Positions 1-39,464 of a DNA stretch of 39,503 nucleotides are shown here, piece after piece. The stretch lies in IMG/VR virus record IMGVR_UViG_2718218309_000001, one strand, 5' to 3'. The first letter of the stretch is position 1; each line of letters begins with the position of its first letter. Below the pieces are notes generated by a model. The model saw nothing but the letters and a program-made list of their open reading frames with translations. It had not been told where the DNA came from and searched no databases. Source of the stretch: a virus (Duplodnaviria > Heunggongvirae > Uroviricota > Caudoviricetes). A program made the translations under genes and the position numbers.

Positions 1-1749
1 ATGACAGTGGCAAATTATAATTCTCTTGTCCAGAAAACTTTCTGCGAAAATGCAATTCGTTCCGTTGTCATGATTGATGACGATTTTCTGACGTATTCTG
101 AATCAATCAGGGCGTTGAATAACGAAGTTGATTTAGACTACAACAAAATTGACTCATCTAAACGAGCCGCTACTCTTGAGAGCTTTTTTCAATCTAAAAA
201 TATGATTTGTGATGTTGACAATGGTTCTGTTAATTTCGATGTGGATCGGATTAGAAAATCAGATCTTATTATTGTAGATTATCATCTTGATAATAATGCA
301 CCTGATAAAACACTTAAACCATTACAAGATTTGAAAGACTCCGATCATTTAAATATGATTGTAATATATACTAGAGAGAATTTAGAAACGGTTTGGATGC
401 AGATATCATCGACTCTCAAAGGTGCTCTGGATATCAACAGCTTGATCATTGACTACGATAATGAAGATGTCCAAAGTTATTGGGAAGACGTTGTATTACC
501 GAACTTAAATGATAATGGTAATAAAGCTCTCACAAGAGATGAAACAATAGCCTATATTAAAGACAGTAAGCCTTGTAGAAGAATTAAAAGATTAATACAT
601 GATGATGCTGTGTTGGAGGATCAAAAGGATAAAAACTTCATTGCAAAAATGATTGCAGAATATGCTGTGTCTAGAAATGCAATTATTTCTAGCAACACAT
701 CTGGCAATGTCATTCGGGGTGATGAAAGCGGAGTAAAATGGATTCAATGTGGTAATATCTTTGTCTCCCTATTTCATAAGGTTCAAGATGATCATGAAAA
801 CGATGGAGATAGGATTTGGCAAACTCTCAATGATTCTCTCATTGAATGGAAACCATCTTATTATCAGTTAATAAAATCTGAAATTCAGAATGCAATCGAA
901 GCTGAGGCTTTATCTTTTGTAAATCATTTGGCTAACGATCATTACGGTCAAGCTGCGTGGTTAAATGAGATATTAAAATCAGACTCGCCTGATATTAGAT
1001 GTAGAAATATTGACTTTGTATTTGGTAATTTATCAGAAGAGCTTTATCAAAGACTTAAAAATAATAATACGCTGGATGAATTTATCAAAAGTGTTTTTGA
1101 TAGCTATTCAAATGAATACGCTAACAGCGGAGTTGCTGCATTGCTCCAATATTGCTCTTCAAAAATGGATCTGCCATCAAATAATGATACTTATCACGAA
1201 ATGTATCATGCTTTAAATATGAATTTGTCTTCAAAGAATTTTGAAGATGGTCATATTTCTACTGGCACTATTTTCTTTGATACAGAGTCGAACAAATGGT
1301 ATTTATGTGTATCTGCGGCATGTGATTTGGTTCCTACTCAGGGTAACGACCCTCACCATGTAAGATTAAGTCCGCACAGGCTCATTAAAGTTCTGGAGCT
1401 TTTTAACGCCAGTCAGAGTAAAGCATTGCCATTTGCTGAACATTCGAAATATATATATGTAATGCATAAAAATCAAAGAAAATATCTCTCTATTTTCGAA
1501 GGGGATAAAACGCTTCCTGTTGTTGATTATATGGTGGTGTTGAATCATGGAACAACAGTTGATGGCGAAGAAAAAAATATTATTTCTGCCGTGTTTTTAA
1601 GTAATATGGATGGCAACGTGCAAAATGTTCCTGTCCGACTCAAACTTAAATCTCAACTGAGAACTGGTTATGCAGAAAGATATCAGGCTATAGCGTCTCA
1701 GTATAGCTCAAGGATTGGTGTGGATTATGTATCAATGATGCTACCATAA
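1..1749 (+). CDS. Hypothetical 582-aa protein; N-terminal alpha/beta domain with acidic motifs (VVMIDDD, DLIIVDYHLD, MIVIYT, STLKG) reminiscent of receiver/PIN/Toprim-type folds; no P-loop seen
   Basis: Long uninterrupted ORF from ATG at position 1; AT-rich codon usage unlike the prophage core; alternating hydrophobic strands ending in Asp residues. Domain assignment is inference only. Confidence 0.6.
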   Translation: MTVANYNSLVQKTFCENAIRSVVMIDDDFLTYSESIRALNNEVDLDYNKIDSSKRAATLESFFQSKNMICDVDNGSVNFDVDRIRKSDLIIVDYHLDNNAPDKTLKPLQDLKDSDHLNMIVIYTRENLETVWMQISSTLKGALDINSLIIDYDNEDVQSYWEDVVLPNLNDNGNKALTRDETIAYIKDSKPCRRIKRLIHDDAVLEDQKDKNFIAKMIAEYAVSRNAIISSNTSGNVIRGDESGVKWIQCGNIFVSLFHKVQDDHENDGDRIWQTLNDSLIEWKPSYYQLIKSEIQNAIEAEALSFVNHLANDHYGQAAWLNEILKSDSPDIRCRNIDFVFGNLSEELYQRLKNNNTLDEFIKSVFDSYSNEYANSGVAALLQYCSSKMDLPSNNDTYHEMYHALNMNLSSKNFEDGHISTGTIFFDTESNKWYLCVSAACDLVPTQGNDPHHVRLSPHRLIKVLELFNASQSKALPFAEHSKYIYVMHKNQRKYLSIFEGDKTLPVVDYMVVLNHGTTVDGEEKNIISAVFLSNMDGNVQNVPVRLKLKSQLRTGYAERYQAIASQYSSRIGVDYVSMMLP

Positions 1750-1761
1750 TTATTATATTTT

Positions 1762-1789
1762 AGGCGTGGTGATTTTTTTCGCCATGCCT
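1762..1789. terminator. Hairpin (aggcgtgg / ccatgcct stem) followed by T-rich tract between convergent genes
   Basis: Inverted repeat 1762-1769 and 1782-1789 with about 12-nt loop, flanked by T runs; sits between the 3' ends of ORF 1-1749 (+) and ORF 1820-2236 (-). Confidence 0.3.
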
Positions 1790-1819
1790 ATTTTATATTT
1801 ATCATCACAATGATGTTGT

Positions 1820-2236
1820 TTATTTTTGTTTAAGTCTTCTAAGCTTCATGCATTCTAATGAGAATAATAATAGAGTTGTGCTGTATATAAAGCCAGAGTT
1901 AGTTAATAACTTTAAATTTAATGCTTCAGGATTTTCACTGAGAAAGTGAAAGGCATAAACTAAGTATACAGCTAAAGTAGCCGTTCCAATTGTTGGTCCA
2001 ATATCGCCTTGATCATGAGGTTCAAGGTTTACATTGAACTTGAAGATTAGCCATTCAAATCCCCAAGTAAAAAAAACAACTAATATCATGGCTGCGAATA
2101 ATTTCGCGATGTTATCTGCTGATGGATTCATCAGAACAGATTGTTTCTGAAAAAATTCACAAAGTGAGAGTCCGAAAAAAATAAAAAAAAGTGGTCTGGA
2201 ACTAAATTTTTCAAAAACTTTGAATAGGGTTTCCAT
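1820..2236 (-). CDS. Hypothetical small multi-pass membrane protein (138 aa, about 4 hydrophobic segments)
   Basis: ORF with several 18-22 aa hydrophobic stretches (FFIFFGLSL, AAMILVVFFTWGF, GTATLAVYLVYAF, IYSTTLLLFSL); immediately downstream of and co-directional with the P4-type integrase. Confidence 0.45.
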   Translation of the reverse strand: METLFKVFEKFSSRPLFFIFFGLSLCEFFQKQSVLMNPSADNIAKLFAAMILVVFFTWGFEWLIFKFNVNLEPHDQGDIGPTIGTATLAVYLVYAFHFLSENPEALNLKLLTNSGFIYSTTLLLFSLECMKLRRLKQK

Positions 2237-2274
2237 TTTCTTTACCTTCAGGATTATATTAGCTATTCTGATAC

Positions 2275-3546
2275 TTAGGCTACCAGAGCATTTGATCTTT
2301 GAGCTTGAACGTAATCACTCCACCATTGCATCAAACTCTGTCGCTCTATCAGATATTCTGCACGATTGTATGCTGCGATAATTTCATCTTTTTTCGAGTG
2401 GGCAAGCGCTGCCTCAAGAACTTCAGCTCTGAATTTACCAGACTCCTCTGCCGCTGTTCGTGCAATAGAACGCATACCGTGAGCTACAAGCTCGCCTCCG
2501 AACCCCATTCGGATGATAGCTGCGTTGGCTGTTTGTTCATGCATATGATTAAGAGGCGCTTTTATGCTGGGGAAAACCCATTCTCTATGCCCACTTATTG
2601 ATTTCATTAATTCAAGGATGCGCAAAGCTTCTTTACTCAAAGGAACTTTGTGAAGCTTTTTCATTTTCATGAAATCAGCAGGAATGTTCCAAATGCTGTT
2701 GGTTGTATCAATATCAGACCACCTTGCGCGAACGGCTTCACCCGGACGAACCCATGTCAACAATTGCCATTCAATTAGCATACGTGTTTCCAACCGGATT
2801 GACGCATTCGTCAAAGATTCCATAAACCTTGGCAATTCGCTTGGGGGAAGGGCAGGCATATTTTGCTTTTTTGGTTTACTGAATCTTTGACCAAGGTTGT
2901 CAGCCGGGTTGAACTCAATAAGTTCTTCAGTAGCTGCCCACCGGAAGATTTCATTCAGACGTGAAATGATACGGCGTAGAGTTTCCAATACGCCTCGTTG
3001 CTCAATAGGATCAAGGTGTTGTTTTAAGAGCTTAGGTCGGATCTCATTGATAGGGACATTACCCAGACCGGGAAAGACATTTCTCTCTAAGCTGCGCCAG
3101 ATGTCTGCTGCATGGTCTTGTGAGATACCTGATGTCTTTACCTTCTCATCTAACCATTTCCGCGCTACGGCTTGGAGAGTGTGCTCAGTAGCACTCTTTA
3201 ATGCCTTCGCCTTATCGTTGTTATGGATTTGGGGATCAACACCATTTGCCAGAAAGGAGAGATATTCATCACGTAAGGCTCTGGCTCTTGCAAGGGTAAG
3301 GTGAGGATATGTCCCAAGGCTCATTTTGGTTCTTTTCTTGCTCACTGGTACTGCATACCTGAAATACCAATTTTTCTTGCCTCCTTTCGCCAAAGGAGCG
3401 ATTCGTAGAATCAGACCATCACCGTCAAACAAGTTGATTTCTTTATCGGCTGGCTTGGTGCTTTTGATTTCAGTGTCAGTGAGCTTCTTAGCGATTTTTG
3501 CCATTTTGGGACCCTCGGTTTTTGGACCCTTCTTAGTGGGTCCCAT
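2275..3546 (-). CDS. int: P4-family tyrosine integrase (CP4-57 IntA-like); true start probably the internal Met (MAKIAKKLTDTEIK, near 3504)
   Basis: N-terminal TDTEIKSTKP...DGDGL...WYFRY motif block typical of P4-type integrases; C-terminal catalytic region with R...H..R..Y-type residues (HGMRS, AHS...YNRAEY); adjacent to att copy. Confidence 0.9.
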   Translation of the reverse strand: MGPTKKGPKTEGPKMAKIAKKLTDTEIKSTKPADKEINLFDGDGLILRIAPLAKGGKKNWYFRYAVPVSKKRTKMSLGTYPHLTLARARALRDEYLSFLANGVDPQIHNNDKAKALKSATEHTLQAVARKWLDEKVKTSGISQDHAADIWRSLERNVFPGLGNVPINEIRPKLLKQHLDPIEQRGVLETLRRIISRLNEIFRWAATEELIEFNPADNLGQRFSKPKKQNMPALPPSELPRFMESLTNASIRLETRMLIEWQLLTWVRPGEAVRARWSDIDTTNSIWNIPADFMKMKKLHKVPLSKEALRILELMKSISGHREWVFPSIKAPLNHMHEQTANAAIIRMGFGGELVAHGMRSIARTAAEESGKFRAEVLEAALAHSKKDEIIAAYNRAEYLIERQSLMQWWSDYVQAQRSNALVA

Positions 3547-3669
3547 TCAGGGTGCCATAACTCGTAGTTCTCAGCAATTCTCACTGGACGACAATAGACG
3601 TAAAAAAGCCCGCAGAGCTTGTGCTGTGTGGGCTTAGTAGACTTCATTGAACTTCAAACAACTAAAAAG

Positions 3670-3714
3670 TGGTGGAGCTGGCGGGAGTTGAACCCGCGTC
3701 CGAAATTCCTACAT
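3670..3714. repeat. 45-bp direct repeat of the ssrA 3' end (att core copy; junction between prophage and P4-like island)
   Basis: tggtggagctggcgggagttgaacccgcgtccgaaattcctacat is identical to 39102-39146 (the 3' end of ssrA); sequences diverge immediately outside. Confidence 0.9.
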
Positions 3715-3827
3715 ACCATTTTTATCATAGTAAAAACAGTAATTTACGTTTAAAAACAATGTATTAGTATTATTTTGTATTTGTCCGTTTTACGCATTTT
3801 TAATGCTCTGTCGCCAAATTGCCGCCA

Positions 3828-5021
3828 TCACTTCTTGTCTTCGATAGAACCGTATTCAAGAAGGTTGTCCATACACTTCTCTAACCTATAGAAATCTGTC
3901 AAAGGATAGAGATTGACAATGTTGTCATCAAAACTTTGCATACCTGATAAACGTTCTTTCCTTCTTAAGAATCTTGAGGCAGACCTAACACCATCATCCT
4001 CACTTGGTTCACAGGAATAATCTAGAGTTTTTAGTACCTGCCATGAAACGGGGGGAGTAAGCTTGAACATTTTTACTAGCTTAGGACAGAAATCTTTTGT
4101 TATGGTTTGCTGATATGTAACTTTAGGTGGAAGAACAACGTTAATAGATTTATCACCATGGTTTGTTTTAATCATTCTTGTCGATCTGTATGCAATTCCG
4201 ACAATGTTTGATTTATTTCTACGACTAATCCATTGCATTAATAAATTTGGGATTATATATTCCTGAGTGAAAGATGTGCTGCCGTTAATCTTTGCAAAAC
4301 TACAAGCGTAAATTAGTGGCATTAAACAAATGTAAGACATCTTTGTGATGTATGACATTTTGTCATTATCAATCTTACCATAGAAACGTGAGTAGAGGAT
4401 TTCCGAAGTGAAATCTAATATTTTGGAATTTTCTTCACTGGATATAAAAGAAGATATATATAACTTATCAAAATCAGGTTTATCCATTTCAAGCCAACAT
4501 ACATATAGGGATGAGCCTAAATATAAACAGGGTAGACCTGCAACCGAGTATCTTTGGGCATTTACCAAGTGCCTTTTAGAGAATGGTATATGAAAGATTT
4601 CATTTCTATTTTTTACTGCTGTATCAGATTTTCTAACCCTGAATAAAGGTCTTGAAGAATTGCAAATATTCTCTAAGGGGATTGATATTTTCTGGATGTA
4701 GTTAGCTGTGAATCGATCAGAAAATGTTCTGTCGAAAGTATCATATGAGGACTTGATATCACCTGATAAAAAATATTCCAAAGAGCTTACAACGCCAAAG
4801 TATATTCTTGTTATTCTATCAAGTTTAGAACTCAATCTACGAGATAATTCATTGTCATTATCTTCTATGTAGTCATTTAAAGTATTAAAGTAAATTTCAC
4901 ATTTATTTTTAAAATCATTAATAATGTCGGTCTTAACAGTGAAAGGGAGTTTTAAATCTCCCGTCTTTATAAGGCTTTCAAATAAAAAATTAAAATCATC
5001 ATGTATATTTTCGGTTTCCAT
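3828..5021 (-). CDS. RES-domain-like protein (397 aa), candidate NAD+-targeting toxin/effector
   Basis: Motif block PLFRVR...QRYSVAGLPCLYLGSSLYVCWLE (aa about 125-179) matches the RES signature (Arg ... G.P.LYL.SS ... E) known from RES-Xre toxins; very AT-rich; second gene of an operon downstream of int. Confidence 0.55.
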   Translation of the reverse strand: METENIHDDFNFLFESLIKTGDLKLPFTVKTDIINDFKNKCEIYFNTLNDYIEDNDNELSRRLSSKLDRITRIYFGVVSSLEYFLSGDIKSSYDTFDRTFSDRFTANYIQKISIPLENICNSSRPLFRVRKSDTAVKNRNEIFHIPFSKRHLVNAQRYSVAGLPCLYLGSSLYVCWLEMDKPDFDKLYISSFISSEENSKILDFTSEILYSRFYGKIDNDKMSYITKMSYICLMPLIYACSFAKINGSTSFTQEYIIPNLLMQWISRRNKSNIVGIAYRSTRMIKTNHGDKSINVVLPPKVTYQQTITKDFCPKLVKMFKLTPPVSWQVLKTLDYSCEPSEDDGVRSASRFLRRKERLSGMQSFDDNIVNLYPLTDFYRLEKCMDNLLEYGSIEDKK

Positions 5022-5075
5022 TGTTATTATCCTTTTGAGTAATTTAATGAATATAACGGGTTTTTCGTGACAGCA

Positions 5076-6203
5076 TCATTCCAAATGATCTGCCGCCGCT
5101 TTGCCGCCAAGGATTTTCATATAAGGAGGCTTAGCATAAACCTCCTTGGTCTGCTGGAAAGTGGTTTTGGAGAATCTTCTTTCTTCTGATTGTAAATATT
5201 TTAGCAGACGTTGATATTTGTTTTCTAATATTTGACTATTCCCAGCCAGATCGTAAATATCGCAGGTTATGTTATAAAGCCAATAAACTACGGCTTTGAT
5301 TTCAGGCTCTGAGAAATAGGTTGTGTTAAATACATATTCATTATTATGATTGTAAATGTAGGAGTGTTTCCTTTGTATAGTGTTAACCTTAAGTAGCTTC
5401 ATAAGGTTGATAATTTTAAGGTCAATAGAAATTAAAGAAATTATCTCTGACTTCAAATCACCCTTTTTGATACCAATAATTTCTTTATCAAGTTCATTCC
5501 AGGCATTTATGATTTTTTGCGTGAATTTTGGGGAAGGGCTATAAATTGCACCAGTATTTTGTGAAGATTGAAATAAATTATTATAAAGCTTATGAGGAAA
5601 TACAATTTTCACTTCGTAAGTATTTACTTTTTCACTTGATTCTATATAAGCATGGCTAGCCACTTCAGCAGCCACATGCCTTGTTCGATCAGTCTGCGTG
5701 GGGATATATTCAAGAACCAAAGTAGGGAATGAACTAATCGTTTCGATAAATAGTTTTAAATGAGAGTAATAAGCGTCTGCATTGTTTTTAACTTTAGCTG
5801 ATTGTATCTGTGATTCAGTTTGAATGGTTCTATGAATATTATTTACTATTGAAGCCAGTGGCACTGATGAAGCTAATAATAGCAACGGAAGTTTACTAAT
5901 ATTAAGAAAATTTGCAAACCCGTCGGTTGTCAGTTGTAAACTATGATCTCTCCAAACCCAGCAACCGAATAAAATAAAATAGTAAAATGGTAATAAGATA
6001 GAAGCTATAAACAAAGGTTGTTTGAATAAATTATTGTCATTTAACTCAAACCACCCGTAAAAATAAAACAGTCCTATTGTTATAAATAATGAGGTTATTG
6101 CCACCGTTAAGAACATTACCTCAAAACCATAATATATTGTAAAAGTATTTGCAACTATGGATAGTAAGAGCAAAAAAGTTAAAGTGATAATTTTATTTTT
6201 CAT
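5076..6203 (-). CDS. Hypothetical membrane protein (375 aa): about 4 N-terminal TM helices plus about 280-aa soluble C-terminal domain
   Basis: Hydrophobic segments in the first 90 aa; start ATG (6203-6201) overlaps the int stop codon (TGA 6202-6200), i.e. ATGA translational coupling with int; AT-rich. Confidence 0.6.
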   Translation of the reverse strand: MKNKIITLTFLLLLSIVANTFTIYYGFEVMFLTVAITSLFITIGLFYFYGWFELNDNNLFKQPLFIASILLPFYYFILFGCWVWRDHSLQLTTDGFANFLNISKLPLLLLASSVPLASIVNNIHRTIQTESQIQSAKVKNNADAYYSHLKLFIETISSFPTLVLEYIPTQTDRTRHVAAEVASHAYIESSEKVNTYEVKIVFPHKLYNNLFQSSQNTGAIYSPSPKFTQKIINAWNELDKEIIGIKKGDLKSEIISLISIDLKIINLMKLLKVNTIQRKHSYIYNHNNEYVFNTTYFSEPEIKAVVYWLYNITCDIYDLAGNSQILENKYQRLLKYLQSEERRFSKTTFQQTKEVYAKPPYMKILGGKAAADHLE

Positions 6204-7219
6204 AAGTTAATCATATTCAACGGGTTTTTGGTAACTGCATCTTCTAAATGATCTGGGGAGAAATGTGCATAGATCATTGTCATCTTAATATCGGCATGCC
6301 CAAGAATTTCTTTAAGAACAAGTATATTACCGCCATTCATCATGAAATAGCTTGCGAAGGTATGCCGCAGCACGTGGGTACATTGGCCCTCTGGCAAGTC
6401 GATACCAGCTCGTTTCACTGCGCGCTCAAAAGCTTTTCTGCATGGCGTGAATAGTTTCCCTCTGTTTTTGGGGAGTTCATCATACAGCTCCTGAGATATC
6501 GGTATGGTACGGTTTTTCTTGCCTTTAGTTTTGGTATAGGTGATCCGGTATTTAGTTAACTGATGGCCTTGAAGGTTTTCTGCTTCACTCCATCGCGCGC
6601 CGGTAGCCAGGCATATTTTTGCAATCATCAATAGGCTGGAGCTATGAGAATCTGCGCAAGCATCAAGCAGGCGTTTAATTTCTTCCGTGGTCAGGAACGC
6701 CAGCTCACCTTCTGCGATTTTAAATGTTGGCAAACCGGCGAGTGGATTGGGTGCTGACCAATGGCCCAACTTTTTCAGTGTGCCAAACACGGATGATAGG
6801 TTGCGTTGTTCAAGGTTTACCGTGCGAGGCTTAACTGGCGACATAAGCACGCCATCTTCATTTCGCACCTCACCTTTTAGCCGTGCTTCGCGGTATTTCG
6901 TAAAGTCGCCAGCGGTTAACTCTGAGGCAACAGGATCACCCAGGCCGTTACAAATAATGTTGAGTTTTGCCATCAGGCGTTTGGGGTCAGCAAGTGTCTG
7001 CCCGTAGAGTGAATGCCATTGCTCAATCACTTCTGACAAACGCCGCCGATCTTCTTTCTCACCCAACCACGGTTTTTTGTTTACTTCGTCCATGGTGTGA
7101 TTTTCGAATGCTATGGCCTCACCTTTCGTCGCAAATTGTTTGCGCACACGCTTGCCGTCGCGCCCGTTAGGGTAGCACTCACATAACCATTTACCGTTCG
7201 GCTGTTTTCTGATGGTCAT
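6200..7219 (-). CDS. int: P2/186-type tyrosine integrase
   Basis: 339-aa protein with N-terminal MTIRKQPNGKWLCE... and C-terminal catalytic residues (R...HVLRHTFAS...YAHF), as in P2 Int; located next to the repressor gene as in P2/186. Confidence 0.9.
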   Translation of the reverse strand: MTIRKQPNGKWLCECYPNGRDGKRVRKQFATKGEAIAFENHTMDEVNKKPWLGEKEDRRRLSEVIEQWHSLYGQTLADPKRLMAKLNIICNGLGDPVASELTAGDFTKYREARLKGEVRNEDGVLMSPVKPRTVNLEQRNLSSVFGTLKKLGHWSAPNPLAGLPTFKIAEGELAFLTTEEIKRLLDACADSHSSSLLMIAKICLATGARWSEAENLQGHQLTKYRITYTKTKGKKNRTIPISQELYDELPKNRGKLFTPCRKAFERAVKRAGIDLPEGQCTHVLRHTFASYFMMNGGNILVLKEILGHADIKMTMIYAHFSPDHLEDAVTKNPLNMINL

Positions 7220-15185: not shown

Positions 15186-15884
15186 ATGGTTATGTTAGTG
15201 GATGACTGTCCACGATGTGGATCACAAAAAATAGCGTTTGATGTTAATGGGCTGAATTGCACTAGGGTTTACAATGCATTGGGCGGGGGTAAAACATACG
15301 AGTACGAGGTCTATTGTGTTTGCCGAGAGTGTCATAAAACGACAATGTTTCTTTGCAGACCTTTAACGAAAAATAAAACTTTAGATGGCTATAATTGGGA
15401 AAGTGGAATATTCGGCTTAAAGGAAGTTGCAGAGGTTGTTAGGCCTATATCACCGGCAGACTTAGCAGTAGAGGAGCCACCAGAGTTCTTACCTGAGCAT
15501 ATCAATAGTACATATGAGGAAGGGGCGAAATGTTTGGCTATAGGTTGTTATAATGCAGCAGCAACCATGTTTAGGCTTTGCCTTGATTATGCCACAAAAG
15601 GACTTCTTCCTGATGGGGAGCAAGGGCCTGCGCAAAAAATAAGGAGAAGCCTAGGGTTAAGAATGGAGTGGTTATTTGATAATCATCTACTGCCTGAAGC
15701 TTTAAGGGAACTAGCTGAATGCGTTAAAGATGACGGAAATGATGGAGCGCATGAAGGTATTTTGGATAAAGCTGCTGCTGAGGATCTTGAAGATTTTACC
15801 TATCTTTTTTTAGAACGGCTTTACACTGAACCTCAACGCCTTATCGAAGCCAAGACAAGGCGTGAACAAAGAAGAAACAAATAA
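15186..15884 (+). CDS. Hypothetical Zn-ribbon protein (232 aa): N-terminal CPRCG...CRECH plus C-terminal helical domain; cargo between cos and Q
   Basis: Cx2C-N30-Cx2C at the N-terminus; GGAGGAG RBS; AT-rich; stop is only 8 bp from the Q stop. Confidence 0.65.
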   Translation: MVMLVDDCPRCGSQKIAFDVNGLNCTRVYNALGGGKTYEYEVYCVCRECHKTTMFLCRPLTKNKTLDGYNWESGIFGLKEVAEVVRPISPADLAVEEPPEFLPEHINSTYEEGAKCLAIGCYNAAATMFRLCLDYATKGLLPDGEQGPAQKIRRSLGLRMEWLFDNHLLPEALRELAECVKDDGNDGAHEGILDKAAAEDLEDFTYLFLERLYTEPQRLIEAKTRREQRRNK

Positions 15885-25646: not shown

Positions 25647-26541
25647 CCTTTCGCAGTTGCCTGCACCGCAGATTGTGGATGTGCCGGACTTTGAGACGCT
25701 GCTTGCCGAACGCAAGGCAGAATTTGTGGCGCTTCATCCGAAAGATGAGCAGGAAGCAGTGATCCGCACGCTGGAACTGGAATCTGAACCCGCCACTAAA
25801 TTGTTGCAGGAGAACGCTTACCGTGAGTTGCTTCTGCGCCAGCGCATTAACGAAGCCGCGCAGGCGGTGATGGTGGCTTACGCGATGGGCGGCGATCTTG
25901 ACCAGCTCGCTGCCAACTACAACGTGACACGCCTGACGGTGACGCCTGCTGATAATGATGCTGTGCCGCCCGTTGCAGCTGTGATGGAAAGCGATGAAGC
26001 GTTGCGCCTGCGTGTGCCTGCGGCCTTTGAAGGGCTTTCTGTTGCGGGGCCAACTGCAGCTTATGAATTTCATGCCCGAAGCGCCGACGGTCGGGTGGCG
26101 GATGCCAGTGCAACCAGCCCGGCACCTGCAGAGGTGGTGCTGACTGTCCTTAGCCGCGAAGGCGATGGAACTGCAGAAAAAGACCTGCTGGACGTGGTGG
26201 AAAAAGCTCTGAACAGTGAGAACGTCCGCCCGGTGGCTGACCGTCTTACGGTTCGCAGCGCAGAAATCATCCCGTACCGCGTGGAAGCCACCATTTTTCT
26301 CTATCCTGGACCGGAAGCAGAGCCGGTAATGGCAGCGGCAAAAGCCAGCCTGCAGAAGTACATCGCCAGTCAGACGCGTCTTGGTCGGGATATTCGCCGT
26401 AGCGCCATTTTTGCCGCCCTGCATGTTGAGGGGGTGCAGCGTGTGGAGCTGGCTTCTCCTCTGGCGGATGTGGTCCTGAACAAAACACAGGCGGCATCAT
26501 GTACGCAGTGGAGCGTAACCAACGGAGGAACGGATGAATAG
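25633..26541 (+). CDS. J: Baseplate assembly protein (P2 gpJ)
   Basis: 302 aa from ATG 25633 (same length as P2 J); overlaps W and I. Confidence 0.9.
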   Translation: MAVIDLSQLPAPQIVDVPDFETLLAERKAEFVALHPKDEQEAVIRTLELESEPATKLLQENAYRELLLRQRINEAAQAVMVAYAMGGDLDQLAANYNVTRLTVTPADNDAVPPVAAVMESDEALRLRVPAAFEGLSVAGPTAAYEFHARSADGRVADASATSPAPAEVVLTVLSREGDGTAEKDLLDVVEKALNSENVRPVADRLTVRSAEIIPYRVEATIFLYPGPEAEPVMAAAKASLQKYIASQTRLGRDIRRSAIFAALHVEGVQRVELASPLADVVLNKTQAASCTQWSVTNGGTDE

Positions 26542-27139
26542 TCTGCTGCCACCGGGTTCAACACCACTGGAGCGCCGACTGGCGCAAACCTGCAGCGGGA
26601 TTTCTGATCTGCAGGTGCCGCTTCGTGACTTGTGGAATCCGGCAACCTGTCCGGTCAGTTTCCTGCCTTATCTCGCCTGGGCGTTCTCTGTGGATCGCTG
26701 GGACGAGGGCTGGACAGAAAGCGTCAAGCGCCAGGTGGTGAAGGATGCTTTTTATATTCATCAGCATAAAGGGACCACCAGTGCCGTGCGGCGGGTGGTG
26801 GAGCCGTTCGGATTCCTGATCCGCATTATTGAGTGGTGGCAGACCGGAGAAACACCGGGCACGTTTCGCCTGGATATCGGCGTGCAGGACCAGGGCATCA
26901 CTGAAGATACCTATCTGGAACTTGAGCGACTGATAAGCGATGCCAAACCATGTAGCCGCCACATGATCGGCATGTCCATCAATCTGCAGACCAGCGGCCC
27001 GCATTGGGTGGGAGCCGCCAGCTATCTTGGCGAAGAAATCACGATCTATCCGTATATCAACGAAACGATTATTTCCGGTGGCACCGCGCATGAAGGCGGG
27101 GCGGTCCATGTTATTGACACAATGAGAGTGAATCCATGA
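26534..27139 (+). CDS. I: Baseplate/tail formation protein (P2 gpI)
   Basis: Position between J and tail fibre H; overlapping starts and stops. Confidence 0.85.
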   Translation: MNSLLPPGSTPLERRLAQTCSGISDLQVPLRDLWNPATCPVSFLPYLAWAFSVDRWDEGWTESVKRQVVKDAFYIHQHKGTTSAVRRVVEPFGFLIRIIEWWQTGETPGTFRLDIGVQDQGITEDTYLELERLISDAKPCSRHMIGMSINLQTSGPHWVGAASYLGEEITIYPYINETIISGGTAHEGGAVHVIDTMRVNP

Positions 27140-28638
27140 GCACAAAATTTTATACCCTGCTGACGGATATTGGCGCGGCGAAACTTGCCAGCGCCGCCGC
27201 GCTCGGTGTGCCGCTAAAAATTACCCATATGGCGGTGGGCGATGGCGGTGGAGTATTGCCAACGCCGGACGCAAAGCAGACGGCACTGGTAAATGAGAAA
27301 CGCCGGGCTGCGCTGAATATGCTTTATATCGACCCGCAGAACAGCAGCCAGATTATTGCCGAACAGGTGATCCCTGAAAACGAGGGCGGTTGGTGGATAC
27401 GTGAAGTGGGCTTGTTTGATGAGTCCGGGGCATTGATTGCCGTGGGCAACTGCCCGGAAAGCTATAAGCCGCAACTGGCTGAAGGTAGCGGGCGCACTCA
27501 GACCGTGCGCATGGTGCTGATTACCAGCAGCACGGACAATATCACCCTGAAAATCGACCCTGCTGTAGTGCTGGCAACCCGCAAGTATGTGGATGACAAG
27601 GCACTGGAGCTGAAGGTTTACGCGGATGATCAGATGGCAAAACATCTTGCCGCACCGGACCCGCATTCACAGTACGCGCCAAAAGCCAGCCCGACATTTA
27701 CCGGAACCCCCAAAGCGCCAACGCCAGCGGCGGGGAATAATACCACGCAGGTTGCGACCACTGCGTTTGTACAGGCGGCACTGACGGCCCTTATTAATGG
27801 TGCGCCAGCCACGCTGGACACGCTGAAAGAAATAGCCGCAGCCATTAACAATGATCCGAATTTCAGTACCACCATTAACAATGCGCTGGCACTAAAAGCA
27901 CCGTTGTCGAGTCCGGCACTCACCGGAACGCCAACAGCCCCCACGGCGGCGCAGTCGGTCAACAATACACAGATTGCCACTACGGCTTTTGTGAAATCGG
28001 CGATTGCAGGAATGGTGGGTTCTGCACCTGCTGCACTGGATACACTGAACGAACTGGCGGCGGCACTGGGGAATGATCCGAACTTTGCCACGACAATGCT
28101 TAATGCGCTGGCAGGTAAACAACCGCTGGACAATACGCTTACCAATTTGAGTGGAAAGGATGTAGCTGGTCTTCTCACATACCTTGGAATAGGAGAAACG
28201 GGAAAATACGACATTCTGCCAGCATCAAGAGGAGGCACTGGAGCGTCAACTATAGCCGGAGCATTGATAAACTTTGGTCTGAGTGATTTAGTGACTGCCG
28301 GATTAGTACAGGTGGAATCTGGTACAGACTTTATTACTGCTAAGATTCCATTTCTGTCAGGTGGTAGCAAGCGATTCCTGATGATACATGCCATCAAGGC
28401 GACAATGCCTGCAAATAATAACGGGTATAACCTTACTGTTACATTCCCGACTGCCTATGATAATGCACCGATACCAATTCTTGGCTCGACCGTAGGGTCG
28501 ACTTCAACAACGGGTGGTACCACAGAGTCAATGAATATTTCATCAGTCACAAAATCGGGTTGCATCATTTCTTCAGCATGGCAAACATGGTCTGAGGGAC
28601 CGGTATATCTTTTAACGATTGGAGGAGTTGCAGCATGA
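27136..28638 (+). CDS. H: Tail fibre protein (P2 gpH); C-terminal part lies inside an invertible segment
   Basis: 500-aa protein with conserved N-terminal MSTKFYTLLTDIGAAKLA; two tandem internal repeats of about 74 aa; AT-richer variable C-terminus after the crossover site at about 28184-28206. Confidence 0.9.
   Translation: MSTKFYTLLTDIGAAKLASAAALGVPLKITHMAVGDGGGVLPTPDAKQTALVNEKRRAALNMLYIDPQNSSQIIAEQVIPENEGGWWIREVGLFDESGALIAVGNCPESYKPQLAEGSGRTQTVRMVLITSSTDNITLKIDPAVVLATRKYVDDKALELKVYADDQMAKHLAAPDPHSQYAPKASPTFTGTPKAPTPAAGNNTTQVATTAFVQAALTALINGAPATLDTLKEIAAAINNDPNFSTTINNALALKAPLSSPALTGTPTAPTAAQSVNNTQIATTAFVKSAIAGMVGSAPAALDTLNELAAALGNDPNFATTMLNALAGKQPLDNTLTNLSGKDVAGLLTYLGIGETGKYDILPASRGGTGASTIAGALINFGLSDLVTAGLVQVESGTDFITAKIPFLSGGSKRFLMIHAIKATMPANNNGYNLTVTFPTAYDNAPIPILGSTVGSTSTTGGTTESMNISSVTKSGCIISSAWQTWSEGPVYLLTIGGVAA
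27685..28128 (+). repeat. Tandem in-frame duplication (2 x about 222 bp) within tail fibre gene H
   Basis: Peptide repeats (P..TGTP.APT.A...NNTQ.ATTAFV...G.APA.LDTL.E.AAA..NDPNF.TT..NALA.K.PL) at aa 184-257 and 258-331. Confidence 0.6.
28184..28206. repeat. Left crossover site of the tail-fibre invertible segment (inverted repeat partner of 29871-29893)
   Basis: TTGGAATAGGAGAAACGGGAAAA versus TTGGTTTGGGAGAAGCGGCAAAA on the opposite strand (18/23 identical); both encode a G.GE.GK-like junction inside tail fibre reading frames. Confidence 0.55.
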
Positions 28639-29021
28639 AATATTATTCACCTTCAATTAATGGATTTCCCGAACAAAAGACTGATGACAGTATTGAGATC
28701 AGTGAAGAGGTCTGGAGAATACTTCTTAGTGAAATTTACTCAGGCCGGGAGTTATTTAACGATGGCGGCGTACCCGCTACCCGTGTGCCGCAACCTACGC
28801 AAGAACAAGTAATTGCAGCCGCAGAAAATGAGCGCCAACGATTGCTGAATTATGCTGATACCGTAATGCTCGACTGGCGTACAGAATTGATGCTGGGTGA
28901 AATCAGCGACGCCAACAGGGCTAAATTGTCGGCGTGGCTGGCTTATAAAAATCAAGTTAAGTCGGTTGATGTGACAACTGACCCTGAGCATGTTAACTGG
29001 CCTGTTCCCCCGGAGGCGTAG
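28635..29021 (+). CDS. G: Tail fibre assembly protein (P2 gpG-like)
   Basis: 128-aa protein after H; conserved Tfa C-terminal motif (...NWPVPPEA). Confidence 0.8.
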   Translation: MKYYSPSINGFPEQKTDDSIEISEEVWRILLSEIYSGRELFNDGGVPATRVPQPTQEQVIAAAENERQRLLNYADTVMLDWRTELMLGEISDANRAKLSAWLAYKNQVKSVDVTTDPEHVNWPVPPEA

Positions 29022-29436
29022 GCCATTCAATATCTGGCGCACTGGAGGTATCAACCAGTTCCAGTGCGTCCAGATAATCCAGCCATAAATTATATTGTTC
29101 CAGCTCGTCACCTTTCAGACGACCAATAGCAGCTTTGCCAGGCCACTGATGGGTATTGATGTAGGTATTGACTTCTGAAACCAAAGATATTTTTTTCATT
29201 TCAGCCGTCAACACCTCATCCTCTTTTGAAGGGGGTGGGGAATTAATCCATACTGGCCGTCCTGAACTGTCAGCGCCAATTTCTTTCCCTTCTGGATGCA
29301 GCCCAAGAAATTGCTCATATGTTTCTCGGTTAATTTCAATAACATCATCTGGAAGCGTTCCCGCATCCTCATATTCTGGAAACAATTCTTGTAGATAAAA
29401 ACTTTTACTTCCGGGTGAAAAGAATACTGAGTTCAT
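28993..29436 (-). CDS. Alternative tail fibre assembly protein (tfa') in inverted orientation
   Basis: 147-aa protein with the same C-terminal motif family (...EWPTPPGEQAS); convergent with G, 3' ends overlap. Confidence 0.75.
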   Translation of the reverse strand: MNSVFFSPGSKSFYLQELFPEYEDAGTLPDDVIEINRETYEQFLGLHPEGKEIGADSSGRPVWINSPPPSKEDEVLTAEMKKISLVSEVNTYINTHQWPGKAAIGRLKGDELEQYNLWLDYLDALELVDTSSAPDIEWPTPPGEQAS

Positions 29437-29438
29437 TA

Positions 29439-29933
29439 TTACCGTCCAATGATTAACGCTGAGACGCTGGTATCTGAAGGAAAGGCTGCATTCAGTGGTT
29501 TGTCGACTTTGAATACAATCGTATTATTCCCCCGGACAGCGGCAAAAGAACAAACCGCCGTCGCGTATGAACCTGTAATATTACTGGATACACCACCATA
29601 GGTTGTTGTTGATACCAGAGGGATAACGCCCAGCACCTTATTAGGAAATACAAAGGGCAATGTGGCTGTGGCAATATAAGACTTATTAGAACCTGTGATG
29701 GCATAAGCATTATCAGTCATTCCATTCATCGCCACTGGGCCGCTTATACTTACAGTAACCATCTGAATGATTAGCCCGTCAGGTTGACGAATCACAAAAT
29801 TTCCATTGCCACCAGTAACCGTCCAGAAAGACATATCAGGGATTTGGTTTTCCCCGTTGCCCACATTCCGTTTTGCCGCTTCTCCCAAACCAACGTTTAA
29901 GAAAATGCAGAGGTAACAGCTAACTGGCATCAT
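29439..29933 (-). CDS. Alternative tail fibre C-terminal segment (H'), expressed as a fusion to the H N-terminus after inversion
   Basis: Frame stays open upstream of the listed Met through the right crossover site (…LGEAAKRNV…); Gly/Thr/Ser-rich beta-type composition typical of fibre tips. Confidence 0.7.
   Translation of the reverse strand: MMPVSCYLCIFLNVGLGEAAKRNVGNGENQIPDMSFWTVTGGNGNFVIRQPDGLIIQMVTVSISGPVAMNGMTDNAYAITGSNKSYIATATLPFVFPNKVLGVIPLVSTTTYGGVSSNITGSYATAVCSFAAVRGNNTIVFKVDKPLNAAFPSDTSVSALIIGR
29871..29893. repeat. Right crossover site of the invertible segment (inverted copy of 28184-28206)
   Basis: See left site; about 1.7 kb apart, invertase gene immediately outside. Confidence 0.55.
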
Positions 29934-29960
29934 CTCCGGTTTTTATTCAGGGGGATGATC

Positions 29961-30527
29961 ATGCTTATTGGCTATGTACGCGTGTCAACAAATGACCAGA
30001 ACACCGATTTGCAACGTAATGCACTGAACTGCGCGGGATGTGAGCAGATTTTTGAGGACAAAATCAGTGGCACTAAGTCCGACAGACCGGGGCTGAAAAA
30101 ACTACTCAGGACACTATCGGCAGGAGACACGCTGGTTGTCTGGAAGCTGGACAGGTTGGGGCGCAGTATGCGGCATCTTGTTACGCTGATAGAAGAGTTG
30201 CGCCAGCGTGGTGTGAATTTCAGAAGCCTGACTGACAGTATTGATACCAGTACCCCAATGGGCCGTTTCTTTTTTCATGTCATGGGTGCCCTGGCTGAAA
30301 TGGAACGCGAACTGATAGTTGAACGTACCAGGGCAGGGCTGGCTGCAGCTCGTGCCAAAGGCAGAGTAGGTGGACGCCGTCCTAAGTTGACCACCGAACA
30401 GTGGGCACAGATTGGGCGTTTACTCGAGGCCGGAGAATCAAGACAGCGTATTGCACTGATTTTTGATGTAGGCGTTTCTACCATTTATAGAAAATTTCCG
30501 GCAAATAAGATCAATGAATCCCCCTGA
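29961..30527 (+). CDS. Serine-recombinase DNA invertase (Hin/Gin/Pin/Cin family)
   Basis: MLIGYVRVSTNDQNTDLQ (catalytic Ser motif), ...DTLVVWKLDRLGRS..., C-terminal HTH (GVSTIYRKF); about 188 aa; adjacent to the inverted repeats. Confidence 0.9.
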   Translation: MLIGYVRVSTNDQNTDLQRNALNCAGCEQIFEDKISGTKSDRPGLKKLLRTLSAGDTLVVWKLDRLGRSMRHLVTLIEELRQRGVNFRSLTDSIDTSTPMGRFFFHVMGALAEMERELIVERTRAGLAAARAKGRVGGRRPKLTTEQWAQIGRLLEAGESRQRIALIFDVGVSTIYRKFPANKINESP

Positions 30528-30575
30528 ATCAGCATTATGTTGATTATCCCTGCAAGCAGACAAATACCGTTGTTT

Positions 30576-30593
30576 TGTGTGAATAACGACACA
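30576..30593. promoter_or_regulatory. Ogr-type late promoter element TGT-N12-ACA (PF)
   Basis: TGTGTGAATAACGACACA centred about 55 bp upstream of the expected FI transcription start. Confidence 0.5.
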
Positions 30594-30669
30594 ACTGCGC
30601 TTAGCTGTTTGTCAGGCACAATCACTTCAACATAGGGCGAAGCCTAATCCAATCAGGAGGTTCGCCACT

Positions 30670-31842
30670 ATGGCTCAGGATTACCACCACGGGGTGCGCG
30701 TTGTTGAAGTCAACGAAGGCACCCGATCTATTACCACGGTGAGCACCGCCATCGTGGGTATGGTCTGCACGGGCGATGATGCCGATGCAAAAATGTTTCC
30801 TCTTAATAAACCCGTGCTGATCACTGATGTGCTGACTGCCAGCGGTAAAGCGGGTGAGTCAGGTACTCTGGCCCGTTCGCTGGATGCCATCGCTGACCAG
30901 GCAAAACCCGTGACCATTGTTGTGCGTGTGCCGCAGGGTGAAACGGAAGACGAAACCACGACCAATATCATCGGCGCAGTGACTGCTGAAGGTAAAAAAA
31001 CAGGTATGAAAGCCCTGTTATCTGCCCAGTCACAGCTCGGCGTTAAACCGCGCATTCTCGGCGTGCCAGGCCACGACACCAAGGCGGTAGCTACTGAGTT
31101 GCTGAGCGTGGCGCAAAGCCTGCGTGGATTTGCTTACCTGTCAGCGTATGGCTGCAAGACAGTGCAGGAGGCGATCACTTACCGCGAAAACTTCAGCCAG
31201 CGCGAAGGGATGCTGATCTGGCCTGACTTTACTGGCTGGGACACGGTGCTGAATGCCGAAGCAACGGCATATGCCACCGCCCGTGCGCTTGGTCTGCGCG
31301 CCAAAATTGACGAGCAGACCGGATGGCACAAAAGCCTGTCCAACGTGGGCGTGAACGGTGTCACCGGAATTTCTGCAGATGTGTTCTGGGATCTGCAGGA
31401 CCCGGCAACCGATGCAGGTCTGCTGAACCAGAACGACGTCACCACGCTTGTGCGTAAAGACGGTTTCCGCTTCTGGGGTTCCCGCTGCCTGAGTGATGAC
31501 CCGCTCTTTGCCTTCGAAAACTACACCCGCACGGCGCAGGTGCTGATGGACACGATGGCAGAAGCACACATGTGGGCGGTGGATAAACCGCTTAACCCGT
31601 CGCTGGCCCGCGACATTATCGAAGGTATCCGCGCCAAAATGCGCAGCCTGGTCAGTCAGGGCTATCTCATTGGTGGTGATTGCTGGCTGGATGAGTCGGT
31701 GAACGACAAAGACACGCTGAAAGCCGGAAAACTCACCATCGACTACGACTACACGCCAGTGCCGCCACTTGAAAACCTGATGCTGCGTCAGCGCATCACC
31801 GATCAGTACCTGGTGAATTTCGCCAGCCAGGTCAGCGCGTAA
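30670..31842 (+). CDS. FI: Contractile tail sheath protein (P2 gpFI)
   Basis: 390-aa protein (P2 FI about 396 aa) in the conserved position before the tube gene. Confidence 0.95.
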
Positions 31843-38077: not shown

Positions 38078-38251
38078 ATGGATACAAACGAACTTGGCTT
38101 AGTTAAGGCGCGTGTTGAACTGATCACCGCTATGCTCAAATGCGCAACCGCGTTTGTTGGCTTAGTTGGTGCGGTTTACGCCGTTCTTAACATGGCCTTC
38201 AACTACAACAATTTAACTCATGACAATAGAAGTTCAAAGGTGGGAAGATAA
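38078..38251 (+). CDS. Small single-TM protein (57 aa from ATG 38078; 62 aa from ATG 38063)
   Basis: Strong RBS GGAGGA (38065-38070) 7 nt before ATG 38078; hydrophobic helix CATAFVGLVGAVYAVLNMAF; 3' end overlaps the RT start by about 30 nt. Confidence 0.45.
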   Translation: MDTNELGLVKARVELITAMLKCATAFVGLVGAVYAVLNMAFNYNNLTHDNRSSKVGR

Positions 38252-38993
38252 ATTTGAGATTAAGCCCGGGGTTTGGGTTTATGTCCCAAGCGTTGAGGCA
38301 CGTAAAGTCGGAGGGAAGATACTTCAGGCTGTCAGAAACAAGTGGATTCCGCCACTCTATTTTTACCATCTAAGAACTGGTGGGCATCTTAAAGCTGCCA
38401 GATTACACTTAAAAAGTGATTTTTTTGCCGTTGTTGATATTAAACAATTTTTTCAGTCAACGAGCCGTAGTCGTATCACCCGTGATCTAAAGAGCTACTT
38501 CACCTATTCTCAAGCGCGGGAAATCTCAACATTTTCAACTGTAAGAAACTTGTCCCATAGTCCACATAAGCATGTCCTCCCTTTTGGTTTTGTTCAATCT
38601 CCAATACTTGCAACCCTCTGCTTAGATAAAAGTTATTTTGGTAGCTTACTACGCCGATTGAACAAACATCATGATCTCAAGCTAAGTGTGTTTATGGATG
38701 ATGTGATCATCTCGTCAAACGATTTGGCCCAATTACAAGCGGCTTACGACGAAGCACTAGTGGCAATGCGTAAATCTGGTTATCAAGCCAACATGAGTAA
38801 AACTCAGGCACCATCGTCAAAGATTAGCGTGTTTAATTTAACTTTGAGTAAGGGAGTTATGAAAGTCACATCTCAGAAAATGAGTGACTTCCTGATTGAT
38901 TTCTATTCAAGCAATTATGAGCCGCACAGAATAGGGGTCAAAAACTACGTCGAAGCTGTTAATCCAGGGCAAGCGAAACTCTTTAAGTTGTAA
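38220..38993 (+). CDS. Compact reverse transcriptase (257 aa; fingers/palm only), defence-associated RT candidate
   Basis: RT motifs in order: motif 2 FFAVVDIKQFF (catalytic Asp), motif 4 LPFGFVQSPILATL, motif 5 VFMDDVII (FMDD at 38691-38702), motif 6 YQANMSKT; no obvious thumb, maturase or retron VTG region; AT-rich; between ogr and attR. Confidence 0.8.
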   Translation: MTIEVQRWEDKFEIKPGVWVYVPSVEARKVGGKILQAVRNKWIPPLYFYHLRTGGHLKAARLHLKSDFFAVVDIKQFFQSTSRSRITRDLKSYFTYSQAREISTFSTVRNLSHSPHKHVLPFGFVQSPILATLCLDKSYFGSLLRRLNKHHDLKLSVFMDDVIISSNDLAQLQAAYDEALVAMRKSGYQANMSKTQAPSSKISVFNLTLSKGVMKVTSQKMSDFLIDFYSSNYEPHRIGVKNYVEAVNPGQAKLFKL

Positions 38994-39101: not shown

Positions 39102-39146
39102 TGGTGGAGCTGGCGGGAGTTGAACCCGCGTCCGAAATTCCTACAT
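39102..39146. repeat. 45-bp att core within the ssrA 3' end (direct repeat partner of 3670-3714)
   Basis: Identical 45-mer; this copy is part of the intact tmRNA gene. Confidence 0.9.
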
Positions 39147-39464
39147 CCTCGGTACTACATGCTTAGTCAGTCTTTACATTCGCTTGCCAGCTGCGGACGG
39201 ACACGCCACTAACAAACTAGCCTGATTAAGTTTTAACGCTTCAACCCCAGGCAGGGCTTCCACGCGATCTCTTTTGGGTTTGACCTCTCTTGATCCCCGT
39301 CCTAAGAGCGGAGGCTAGGGAGAGAGGGCTCTAAGCAGGTTATTAAGCTGCTAAAGCGTAGTTTTCGTCGTTTGCGACTATTTTTTGCGGCTTTTTACGA
39401 GGCCAACCGCCCCTCGGCATGCACCTTGGGTTTCGCAAATCCCGTCGAATCCAGAATCAGCCCC
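39102..39464 (-). ncRNA. ssrA: tmRNA (transfer-messenger RNA, SsrA), 363 nt
   Basis: Reverse complement reads GGGGCTGATTCTGGATTCGACGGG...GCAAACGACGAAAACTACGCTTTAGCAGCTTAA (tag peptide ANDENYALAA)...GGTTCAACTCCCGCCAGCTCCACCA, matching the E. coli tmRNA sequence. Confidence 0.97.

Follow-up and report, generated by a model that had tools for sequence, protein, structure and literature searches.

Gene order in the tail-fibre region of a P2-like prophage

The stretch of DNA analysed here, hereafter the window, comprises the 39,503 nt (39.5 kb) of a Caudoviricetes virus deposited as IMG/VR record IMGVR_UViG_2718218309_000001, a prophage of Escherichia coli. Inspection of its open reading frames (ORFs) and Pfam domains identified the late tail operon of a P2-like prophage, in which a tail-fibre gene, a second and oppositely oriented set of fibre modules and a gene for a DNA invertase lie side by side. 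The present work deals with this tail-fibre cassette and with the evidence bearing on its inversion. The assignment to the P2-like phages (Peduoviridae) is based on the P2 late-gene order, on the presence of Tail_P2_I, Phage_tail_fib, sheath and GPD domains, and on a P2-type integrase adjoining a CI repressor. The region was 98.7% identical, over the matching parts, to Escherichia phage 500465-1 (Peduoviridae, Wadgaonvirus).

Gene I (26534-27139, + strand; Pfam Tail_P2_I) is followed by the tail-fibre gene H (27136-28638, + strand), which codes for a protein of 500 amino acids (aa) with an N-terminal Phage_tail_fib domain (residues 1-150, E=6e-65). Two parts can be distinguished in H. The constant part, named Hc (27136..28184, + strand), extends to the core of a crossover site described below and is supported by its Phage_tail_fib domain and its identity to relatives. 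The variable C-terminus that is now expressed, named Hv (28186..28638, + strand), comprises about 150 aa and is in frame with Hc. The next gene, tfa (28635..29021, + strand; Caudo_TAP, E=3e-19), codes for the tail-fibre assembly chaperone paired with Hv. On the opposite strand lie an alternative chaperone gene, tfa' (28993..29436, - strand; Caudo_TAP, E=1e-27), and its partner Hv' (29439..29891, - strand), a silent alternative C-terminus of H that has no 5' part and shows a weak match to Gp53-like_C. The invertase ORF (29955-30527, + strand; Pfam Resolvase, E=2e-53, and HTH_7, E=1.5e-15) comes next, followed by the sheath gene FI (30670-31842, + strand). Hc also contains an internal direct repeat (27815-27831 and 28037-28053, with a spacing of 222 nt), which encodes a repeated ...P..LDTL.E.A.A..NDPNF.TT... 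motif.

At the same place canonical P2 has the order G - fun(Z) - FI, while the window has G-like tfa - tfa' - Hv' - invertase - FI. An earlier note on this DNA, made from the sequence alone, had placed the cassette at the Z/fun position, and the comparison with P2 bears this out. The content that it had given for the segment (the variable part of H, tfa, an oppositely oriented tfa' and an alternative H' C-terminus) agrees with the ORFs and Pfam domains, and the serine invertase that it had placed immediately outside is indeed found there. Its remark that canonical P2 lacks the arrangement holds for P2 proper; in P2-like elements, however, the arrangement is common and already described, as in Fels-2, phage 500465-1 and the prophages of enteropathogenic E. 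coli (EPEC). Invertases in the Z/fun hotspot of P2 were reported in a 2024 survey (bioRxiv 10.1101/2024.10.15.618418).

Two crossover sites of the Din family bracket the fibre modules

The window was scanned with the palindromic crossover consensus of the Din family, TTNTCNNAAACCNNGGTTTNNGANAA, allowing up to three mismatches, and the result was tested against shuffled sequences. Exactly two matches were found, compared with 0.02 in the shuffles, and none of 100 shuffles reached two. The left site (28172..28197) reads TTCTCACATACC TT GGAATAGGAGAA on the + strand, with the TT core at 28184-28185 and three mismatches to the consensus. The right site (29880..29905) reads TTCTCCCAAACC AA CGTTTAAGAAAA on the same strand, with the AA core at 29892-29893 and a single mismatch. 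TT and AA on the + strand represent one dinucleotide in opposite orientations, an identity without which the ends could not be rejoined after inversion. The pair thus has the structure of Din-family sites, namely two inverted 26-bp sequences with imperfect 12-bp half-sites and identical 2-bp cores, the left inner half-site being atypical. The right site starts 81 bp upstream of the invertase ATG and shares 25 of its 26 bases with the pixR site of the element e14 (TTCTCCCAAACC AA CGTTTATGAAAA; PMC3241671 Table 3). Core to core, the invertible segment spans 1708 bp (28185..29892) and holds Hv, tfa, tfa' and the 5'-truncated Hv'. No third Din-family site was present in the window even when four mismatches were allowed; the layout is therefore that of a two-state switch, and not of a shufflon.

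The sites had been noticed earlier as two imperfect inverted repeats, TTGGAATAGGAGAAACGGGAAAA at 28184-28206 and, as the reverse complement, TTGGTTTGGGAGAAGCGGCAAAA at 29871-29893. These repeats are real, being equal at 18 of 23 positions, but their coordinates begin at the core, while the true sites extend 12 bp outward. As a plain repeat the pair is weak: in a generic repeat search over 6 kb it was absent from the 25 longest of 55 inverted pairs, and its longest exact run was 6 nt. Its significance comes from the fact that both stretches match Din-family crossover sites.

The fibre gene is in frame in both orientations

Inversion of positions 28185-29892 in silico produced an uninterrupted, in-frame H of 500 aa. 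The Hc-Hv' junction created in this way reads ...CTCACATACCTTGGTTTGGGAGAAGCGG... and corresponds to ...LLTYLGLGEAAKRNVG... in the protein, the junction in the present orientation being ...LLTYLGIGETGKYD.... Since the flipped H is in frame, the - strand ORF called at 29439-29933 is a fibre tip without a 5' part; the first 14 apparent codons of this ORF, which was called up to 29933, lie outside the crossover site and are a product of ORF calling. A 'hypothetical protein' annotated at 29439-29933 should accordingly be read as a silent fibre tip and not as a stand-alone gene.

Each tip has its chaperone gene close behind: the stop codon of H and the start codon of tfa overlap as ATGA, and 2 nt separate Hv' from tfa'. 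The locus therefore has the composition of an invertible tail-fibre cassette: a constant 5' part outside the segment, two oppositely oriented 3' parts with their own chaperone genes, and a reading frame that is kept in both states. The two chaperone genes overlap tail-to-tail by 29 nt (28993-29021). A 29-nt tail-to-tail overlap was also seen in e14 (locus L091, 3518-3546), in the prophage of one of two sister isolates described below (L001, 3583-3611) and in phage 500465-1 (L093, 2883-2911), despite the different tfa modules.

An intact Pin-type invertase with a predicted enhancer in its gene

The ATG at 29961 is the most likely start of the invertase: the protein then begins with MLIGY, as do Gin, Cin and PinE, and the sequence GGGGGA lies upstream of this codon. 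The gene (29961..30527, + strand) then codes for a Din-family serine DNA invertase of the Pin type, with 188 aa and the Resolvase and HTH_7 domains. The label of Hin/Gin family given to it in the earlier note is right as regards the Din family, but it is Pin of e14, and not Hin or Gin, that the enzyme resembles most (85% aa identity to PinE); the identity to Cin and Gin was 77% and 75%, respectively. The alignment to the Gin structures 3UJ3/4M6F was ungapped over 184 aa (E=3e-93). The catalytic Ser9 of the small serine recombinases is present, in the sequence MLIGYVRVSTNDQ, and no inactivating change was seen. NCBIfam contained no specific model for the proteins of the cassette.

Position 114 of the invertase is a Met, as in wild-type Gin. 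The M114V change defines the Fis-independent Gin mutant that was used for crystallography. The Hin residues K47, K/R48, K/R51, Q151, R154 and L155 are conserved only among invertases that depend on Fis and the enhancer (PMC3798978). The window protein has K46/K47/R50 and Q150/R153/L154, which are equivalent to Hin K47/R48/K51 and Q151/R154/L155 with an offset of -1, as in Gin. It thus carries the residues that distinguish the Fis/enhancer-activated invertases.

A Fis-dependent recombinational enhancer is predicted at 29979..30050 (+ strand), that is, at nt 19-90 of the invertase gene. In the P1 record the enhancer for inversion by Cin is annotated at the same position, nt 19-90 of cin. The invertase gene was 78% identical to the cin enhancer over this stretch, compared with 72% over nt 91-400. 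The 5' end of the gene had been named earlier as the place to look for such an element, and a homologue of the annotated cin enhancer does lie there; the prediction is based on this homology. Synonymous conservation was measured as the fraction of identical codons among synonymous pairs, in a set made up of gin, cin, pinE and 22 representatives of related invertase genes (dereplication at 97% identity). The fraction was 0.77-0.82 over nt 1-48, fell to 0.57 over nt 49-72 and was 0.78 over nt 73-96; for codons 7-30, which make up the enhancer stretch (nt 19-90), it was 0.71, compared with 0.59 in the gene outside these codons. Known enhancers have two Fis sites at the ends of a sequence of ∼65 bp (PMC3798978), and two conserved blocks around a freer spacer would be the pattern expected from such a pair. 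This pattern is supportive but not decisive, because the sequences compared are related by descent. Inversion in the window is predicted to depend on Fis.

Inversion in closely related prophages

Relatives of the cassette were collected as 80 IMG/VR loci retrieved by the invertase protein (86-100% identity). The same pair of sites was found at the same positions in about 56 of the 80, these being the loci that extend far enough. The left site at the end of Hc is usually TTCTC[A/G]CATACC TT GGTTTGGGAGAA, and the right site is typically TTCTCCCAAACC AA CGTTTA[A/T]GAAAA, located 81 bp before the invertase ATG in most full-length loci. These loci frequently share Hc, the invertase and FI with the window at 96-100% identity and yet have other modules between the sites; Hc was 99.7-100% identical to that of phage 500465-1 and to that of many IMG/VR prophages carrying other variable modules. 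This variation between the sites is the cassette-swapping described for the Z/fun hotspot.

The module formed by Hv' and tfa' was found silent in three loci (L001, L064 and L072) and expressed in four (L002, L037, L065 and L082). Some part of the 3.6-kb region was matched by 2770 of 5426 complete E. coli genomes. Among these genomes, 24 have Hc joined to Hv' in one continuous gene, with up to 99.4% identity to the junction made in silico, and the silent orientation of Hv' seen in the window was present in at least 26 genomes among the matches listed, with 76-78% coverage. Inversion is seen most clearly in two sister E. coli isolates obtained from pigs at one site, NZ_CP149565 (L001) and NZ_CP149553 (L002), both with records of 5,198,112 bp. 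Their 6.8-kb loci are identical except that 1905 bp are inverted between the homologous sites.

The comparison of these two records also revealed 16 mismatches, all of them inside the inverted 1905-bp segment (positions 2564-4468 of the locus); these may have arisen during polishing, if the reads were mixed in orientation. The IMG/VR loci L032, L035 and L050 each have three or four Din-type sites, spread over 4-6 kb, a number that suggests tandem cassettes or multi-segment versions resembling a shufflon. In several contigs derived from isolates the sequence stops at a crossover site or within about 50 nt of one: L087 (position 1-3), L039 and L053 (positions 5-7), and L031, L045 and L050 (position 50). 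Such ends fit assembly breaks at the boundary between constant and variable parts, arising either from repeats in co-resident prophages or from mixed orientation. The end of L087 at the core was considered as evidence for mixed orientation and rejected, as this contig is unbroken through the right site and a repeat of Hc in another prophage explains its end better.

A switch of tail-fibre specificity and its alternatives

The cassette is very probably a Din-family (Hin/Gin/Cin/Pin) inversion switch for tail-fibre specificity in a P2-like (Peduoviridae) prophage beside the ssrA gene of E. coli. The late operon would read through Hc into whichever cassette faces it, producing Hc-Hv and tfa in the present orientation, and Hc-Hv' and tfa' after inversion. 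The invertase, encoded just outside the segment, would bind the two 26-bp sites as dimers and, assisted by Fis bound to the enhancer inside the 5' end of the invertase gene, would make 2-bp staggered cuts at the TT cores through Ser9. A rotation of half of the tetramer by 180 degrees, followed by religation, would leave the 1708 bp flipped. A lysogen population would then release a mix of phages with two receptor specificities. The prophage probably releases two adsorption types, and the two states may differ in host range. Short-read assemblies may break, or be mis-polished, at the cassette.

The repeats might instead be a chance resemblance, or scars of homologous module swapping, with the invertase acting elsewhere in the genome. 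The modest similarity of the repeats (18/23), their escape from a generic repeat finder and the shuffling of modules among phages at this junction would agree with that idea, but the window contains no consensus match besides the two sites (0.02 expected), and the right site keeps its 81-bp offset (site start 3920, gene start 4001) in most full-length relatives. The sister isolates, moreover, differ by an inversion exactly at the homologous sites. Taken together, these findings effectively refute the idea, and we give it almost no credence. It is also conceivable that the switch mainly serves the host, inversion making a fibre-derived protein that blocks the adsorption of other phages. There is a precedent in e14, where PinQ-driven inversion of the P segment was reported to yield a protein, StfE2, that blocks T2 adsorption (PMC12529663), and the window resembles e14 both in its invertase (85% identity to PinE) and in its right site (25/26 bases of pixR). 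The fibre gene of the window, however, lies in the late operon of an apparently complete, intact-looking P2-like prophage and not in a cryptic remnant; late genes are silent in the lysogen, and the sequence contains no pointer to independent expression. A role centred on the host is thus very unlikely.

A different doubt concerns the window's own copy. In its left inner half-site the usual GGTTTGGGAGAA is replaced by GGAATAGGAGAA, a change of three bases (TT to AA, plus a G to A adjoining the core). Several observations weigh against this copy being an active switch. Hv with the variant half-site was fused to a constant part in all seven of its occurrences (the window, L003, L018/L087, L038/L088, L086, L089 and L090); a silent copy next to an invertase was never seen. 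In a search of the 5426 E. coli genomes for the flipped right junction, in which Hv would lie silent by the invertase, no record spanned both junction halves. The exact segment, with both Hv and Hv', was in no searched record, which left no direct comparison for either orientation state. The variant half-site, scanned for as an exact pattern, was detected in three viral (IMG/VR) contigs, in no species-representative genome and in two metagenome contigs, always in the expressed orientation. Further, no consensus sigma-70 promoter was found for the invertase, and a promoter and terminator scan of positions 28100-30700 gave nothing above the shuffled expectation. As Hv was found only in the expressed state, inversion of the window's own segment is unproven. 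Since the four half-sites are the same in either orientation, inversion by an active switch should lead to a mixture of about 50:50; the 7:0 count is thus a mild warning sign that the window's copy may be impaired. The earlier note had named, as signs of a dead switch, a single orientation together with an inactivated invertase: the enzyme shows no inactivating change, and in public data a single orientation of the window's segment was found.

If the variant left inner half-site blocked productive synapsis or cleavage, Hv would be permanent and Hv' and tfa' would be dead cargo. The presence of Hv in the expressed state in three different constant-region contexts, with no silent copy in the 5426 E. 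coli genomes, speaks for this, all the more when set against Hv', which occurs in both states (silent in at least 26 of the genomes listed, expressed in 24). The occurrences of Hv are few, however, and come partly from one prophage lineage. At the altered positions the base pairs are still A:T. Both cores are TT, and the enzyme is as intact as the right site. Moreover, functional Din sites tolerate such permutations, as in hixR (TTTTCCTTTTGG), cixR (GGTATTGGATAA) and mixQ''R' (GGTAATCAAGAA; PMC3241671 Table 3). A locked or strongly impaired switch is unlikely, and it appears reasonably likely that the window's own copy still inverts. The narrower proposal that the degenerate half-site GGAATAGGAGAA froze an otherwise intact Pin-type switch in the ON state is rather improbable. 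Were it true, the window would be a snapshot of an invertible host-range cassette becoming fixed, and the polarity of the A/T tract adjoining the core would matter for Pin-type enzymes.

Hv is a rare module: the window's own Hc-Hv junction was present in one of the 5426 E. coli genomes. The module was absent from the phage collection, where the sole match was a 168-nt part of tfa in Salmonella phage SEN34. Hv was seen joined, at the same crossover dinucleotide, to three constant regions: that of the window type, another with 75% identity to this type, and one ending in ...ALENLG that is unrelated. Junctions of Hv with constant regions lie at 3493-3527 in L086, 324-358 in L090 and 701-735 in L089. 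This shows that modules move between phage lineages at the crossover site.

Comparison with known inversion systems

In its enzyme and its crossover site, the cassette is closest to the P segment of e14 with its Pin invertase (stfP-tfaP / tfaE-stfE' / pinE). The two systems have the most similar invertases (85% aa identity), nearly identical right sites (25/26 compared with pixR), the 29-nt tail-to-tail overlap of the tfa genes and the same order of fibre, tfa, tfa', fibre' and invertase. Segment sizes are similar (1708 bp in the window, 1797 bp in e14; PMC12529663). However, e14 is a defective lambdoid remnant, while the window is an apparently complete P2-like prophage whose left outer half-site and constant fibre part are of the P2 type. 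The variable modules of the two differ except for a 139-nt stretch of tfa'.

In genome context, the nearest relatives are P2-like phages with the same kind of cassette. Among them, the Fels-2 prophage of Salmonella Typhimurium LT2 (invertase STM2702/Fin) has the same order of I - H - tfa - tfa' - H' - invertase - FI, but its sites have a TC/GA core, as gix does, and the nucleotide identity of the invertase genes is no more than 73%. The fibre segment of Fels-2 is inverted between strains LT2 and LT7 (PMC7953296). Phage 500465-1 shares the gene order with the window, together with Hc (99.7%), the invertase gene (100%, annotated as 'DNA invertase') and FI (99.9%); it differs in its variable modules and in having the standard left half-site GGTTTGGGAGAA.

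A likeness to the G segment of Mu and the C segment of P1 had been proposed, and it holds down to the sequence of the crossover sites and the in-frame junction. These systems (Mu G/Gin and P1 C/Cin) have the arrangement Sc-Sv-U / U'-Sv' with the invertase outside, and their invertases show 75-77% aa identity to that of the window. The same LG[L/I]xE junction motif is encoded across the site, in Mu as LGLxE across gix, and the enhancer lies within the 5' end of the invertase gene, where that of the window is predicted. The segments of Mu and P1 are larger (∼3 kb and 4.2 kb), the phages belong to other families and have other fibre domains, and the core of gix is GA. The Hin system of the Salmonella H segment has in common with the window the recombinase family and, probably, the mechanism based on Fis and an enhancer, the residues that contact them being conserved; unlike the window, Hin flips a promoter for flagellin genes and not coding cassettes for tail fibres. 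Min of p15B and a three-repeat EPEC P2-like prophage (PMC4272514) use the same enzyme family for the same purpose, but these multi-site versions have four or more states, while the window has two sites and two states. Whole-genome sequencing of EPEC E2348/69 showed that both orientations coexist in culture in two P2-like prophages (PMC4272514). The design of the cassette is thus already known, and is very common in P2-like phages; the window is one more example, with a receptor-binding module that is uncommon, of a mechanism familiar since Mu, P1 and e14.

Other features of the prophage

The prophage is flanked by ssrA, which codes for the transfer-messenger RNA (tmRNA; 39102-39464, - strand), and by an island with a P4-type integrase. 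Between the ogr/D end of the prophage and ssrA lies an ORF for a 257-aa reverse transcriptase (RT; 38220-38993, + strand), with the Pfam domain RVT_1 and, as its best PADLOC match, the retron-type RT_VI (63 bits). An Rfam search in the vicinity of this ORF found the tmRNA as the sole RNA. The right junction, ogr - RT gene - ssrA, was 100% identical in 27 E. coli genomes.

At the other end, the P2-type integrase is followed immediately, with an overlap of 4 nt, by two - strand ORFs (3828-5021, 397 aa, and 5076-6203, 375 aa). They had no Pfam or PADLOC match and were not covered by the best E. coli matches to positions 1-6300 of the window; they may be what the third P2 hotspot, the one near int/CI, carries as cargo. 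An ORF at 15186-15884 (+ strand), which lies in the old/tin hotspot with the replication gene A on one side and the portal gene Q on the other, showed a weak PADLOC match to PD-T7-4 (E=1e-6).

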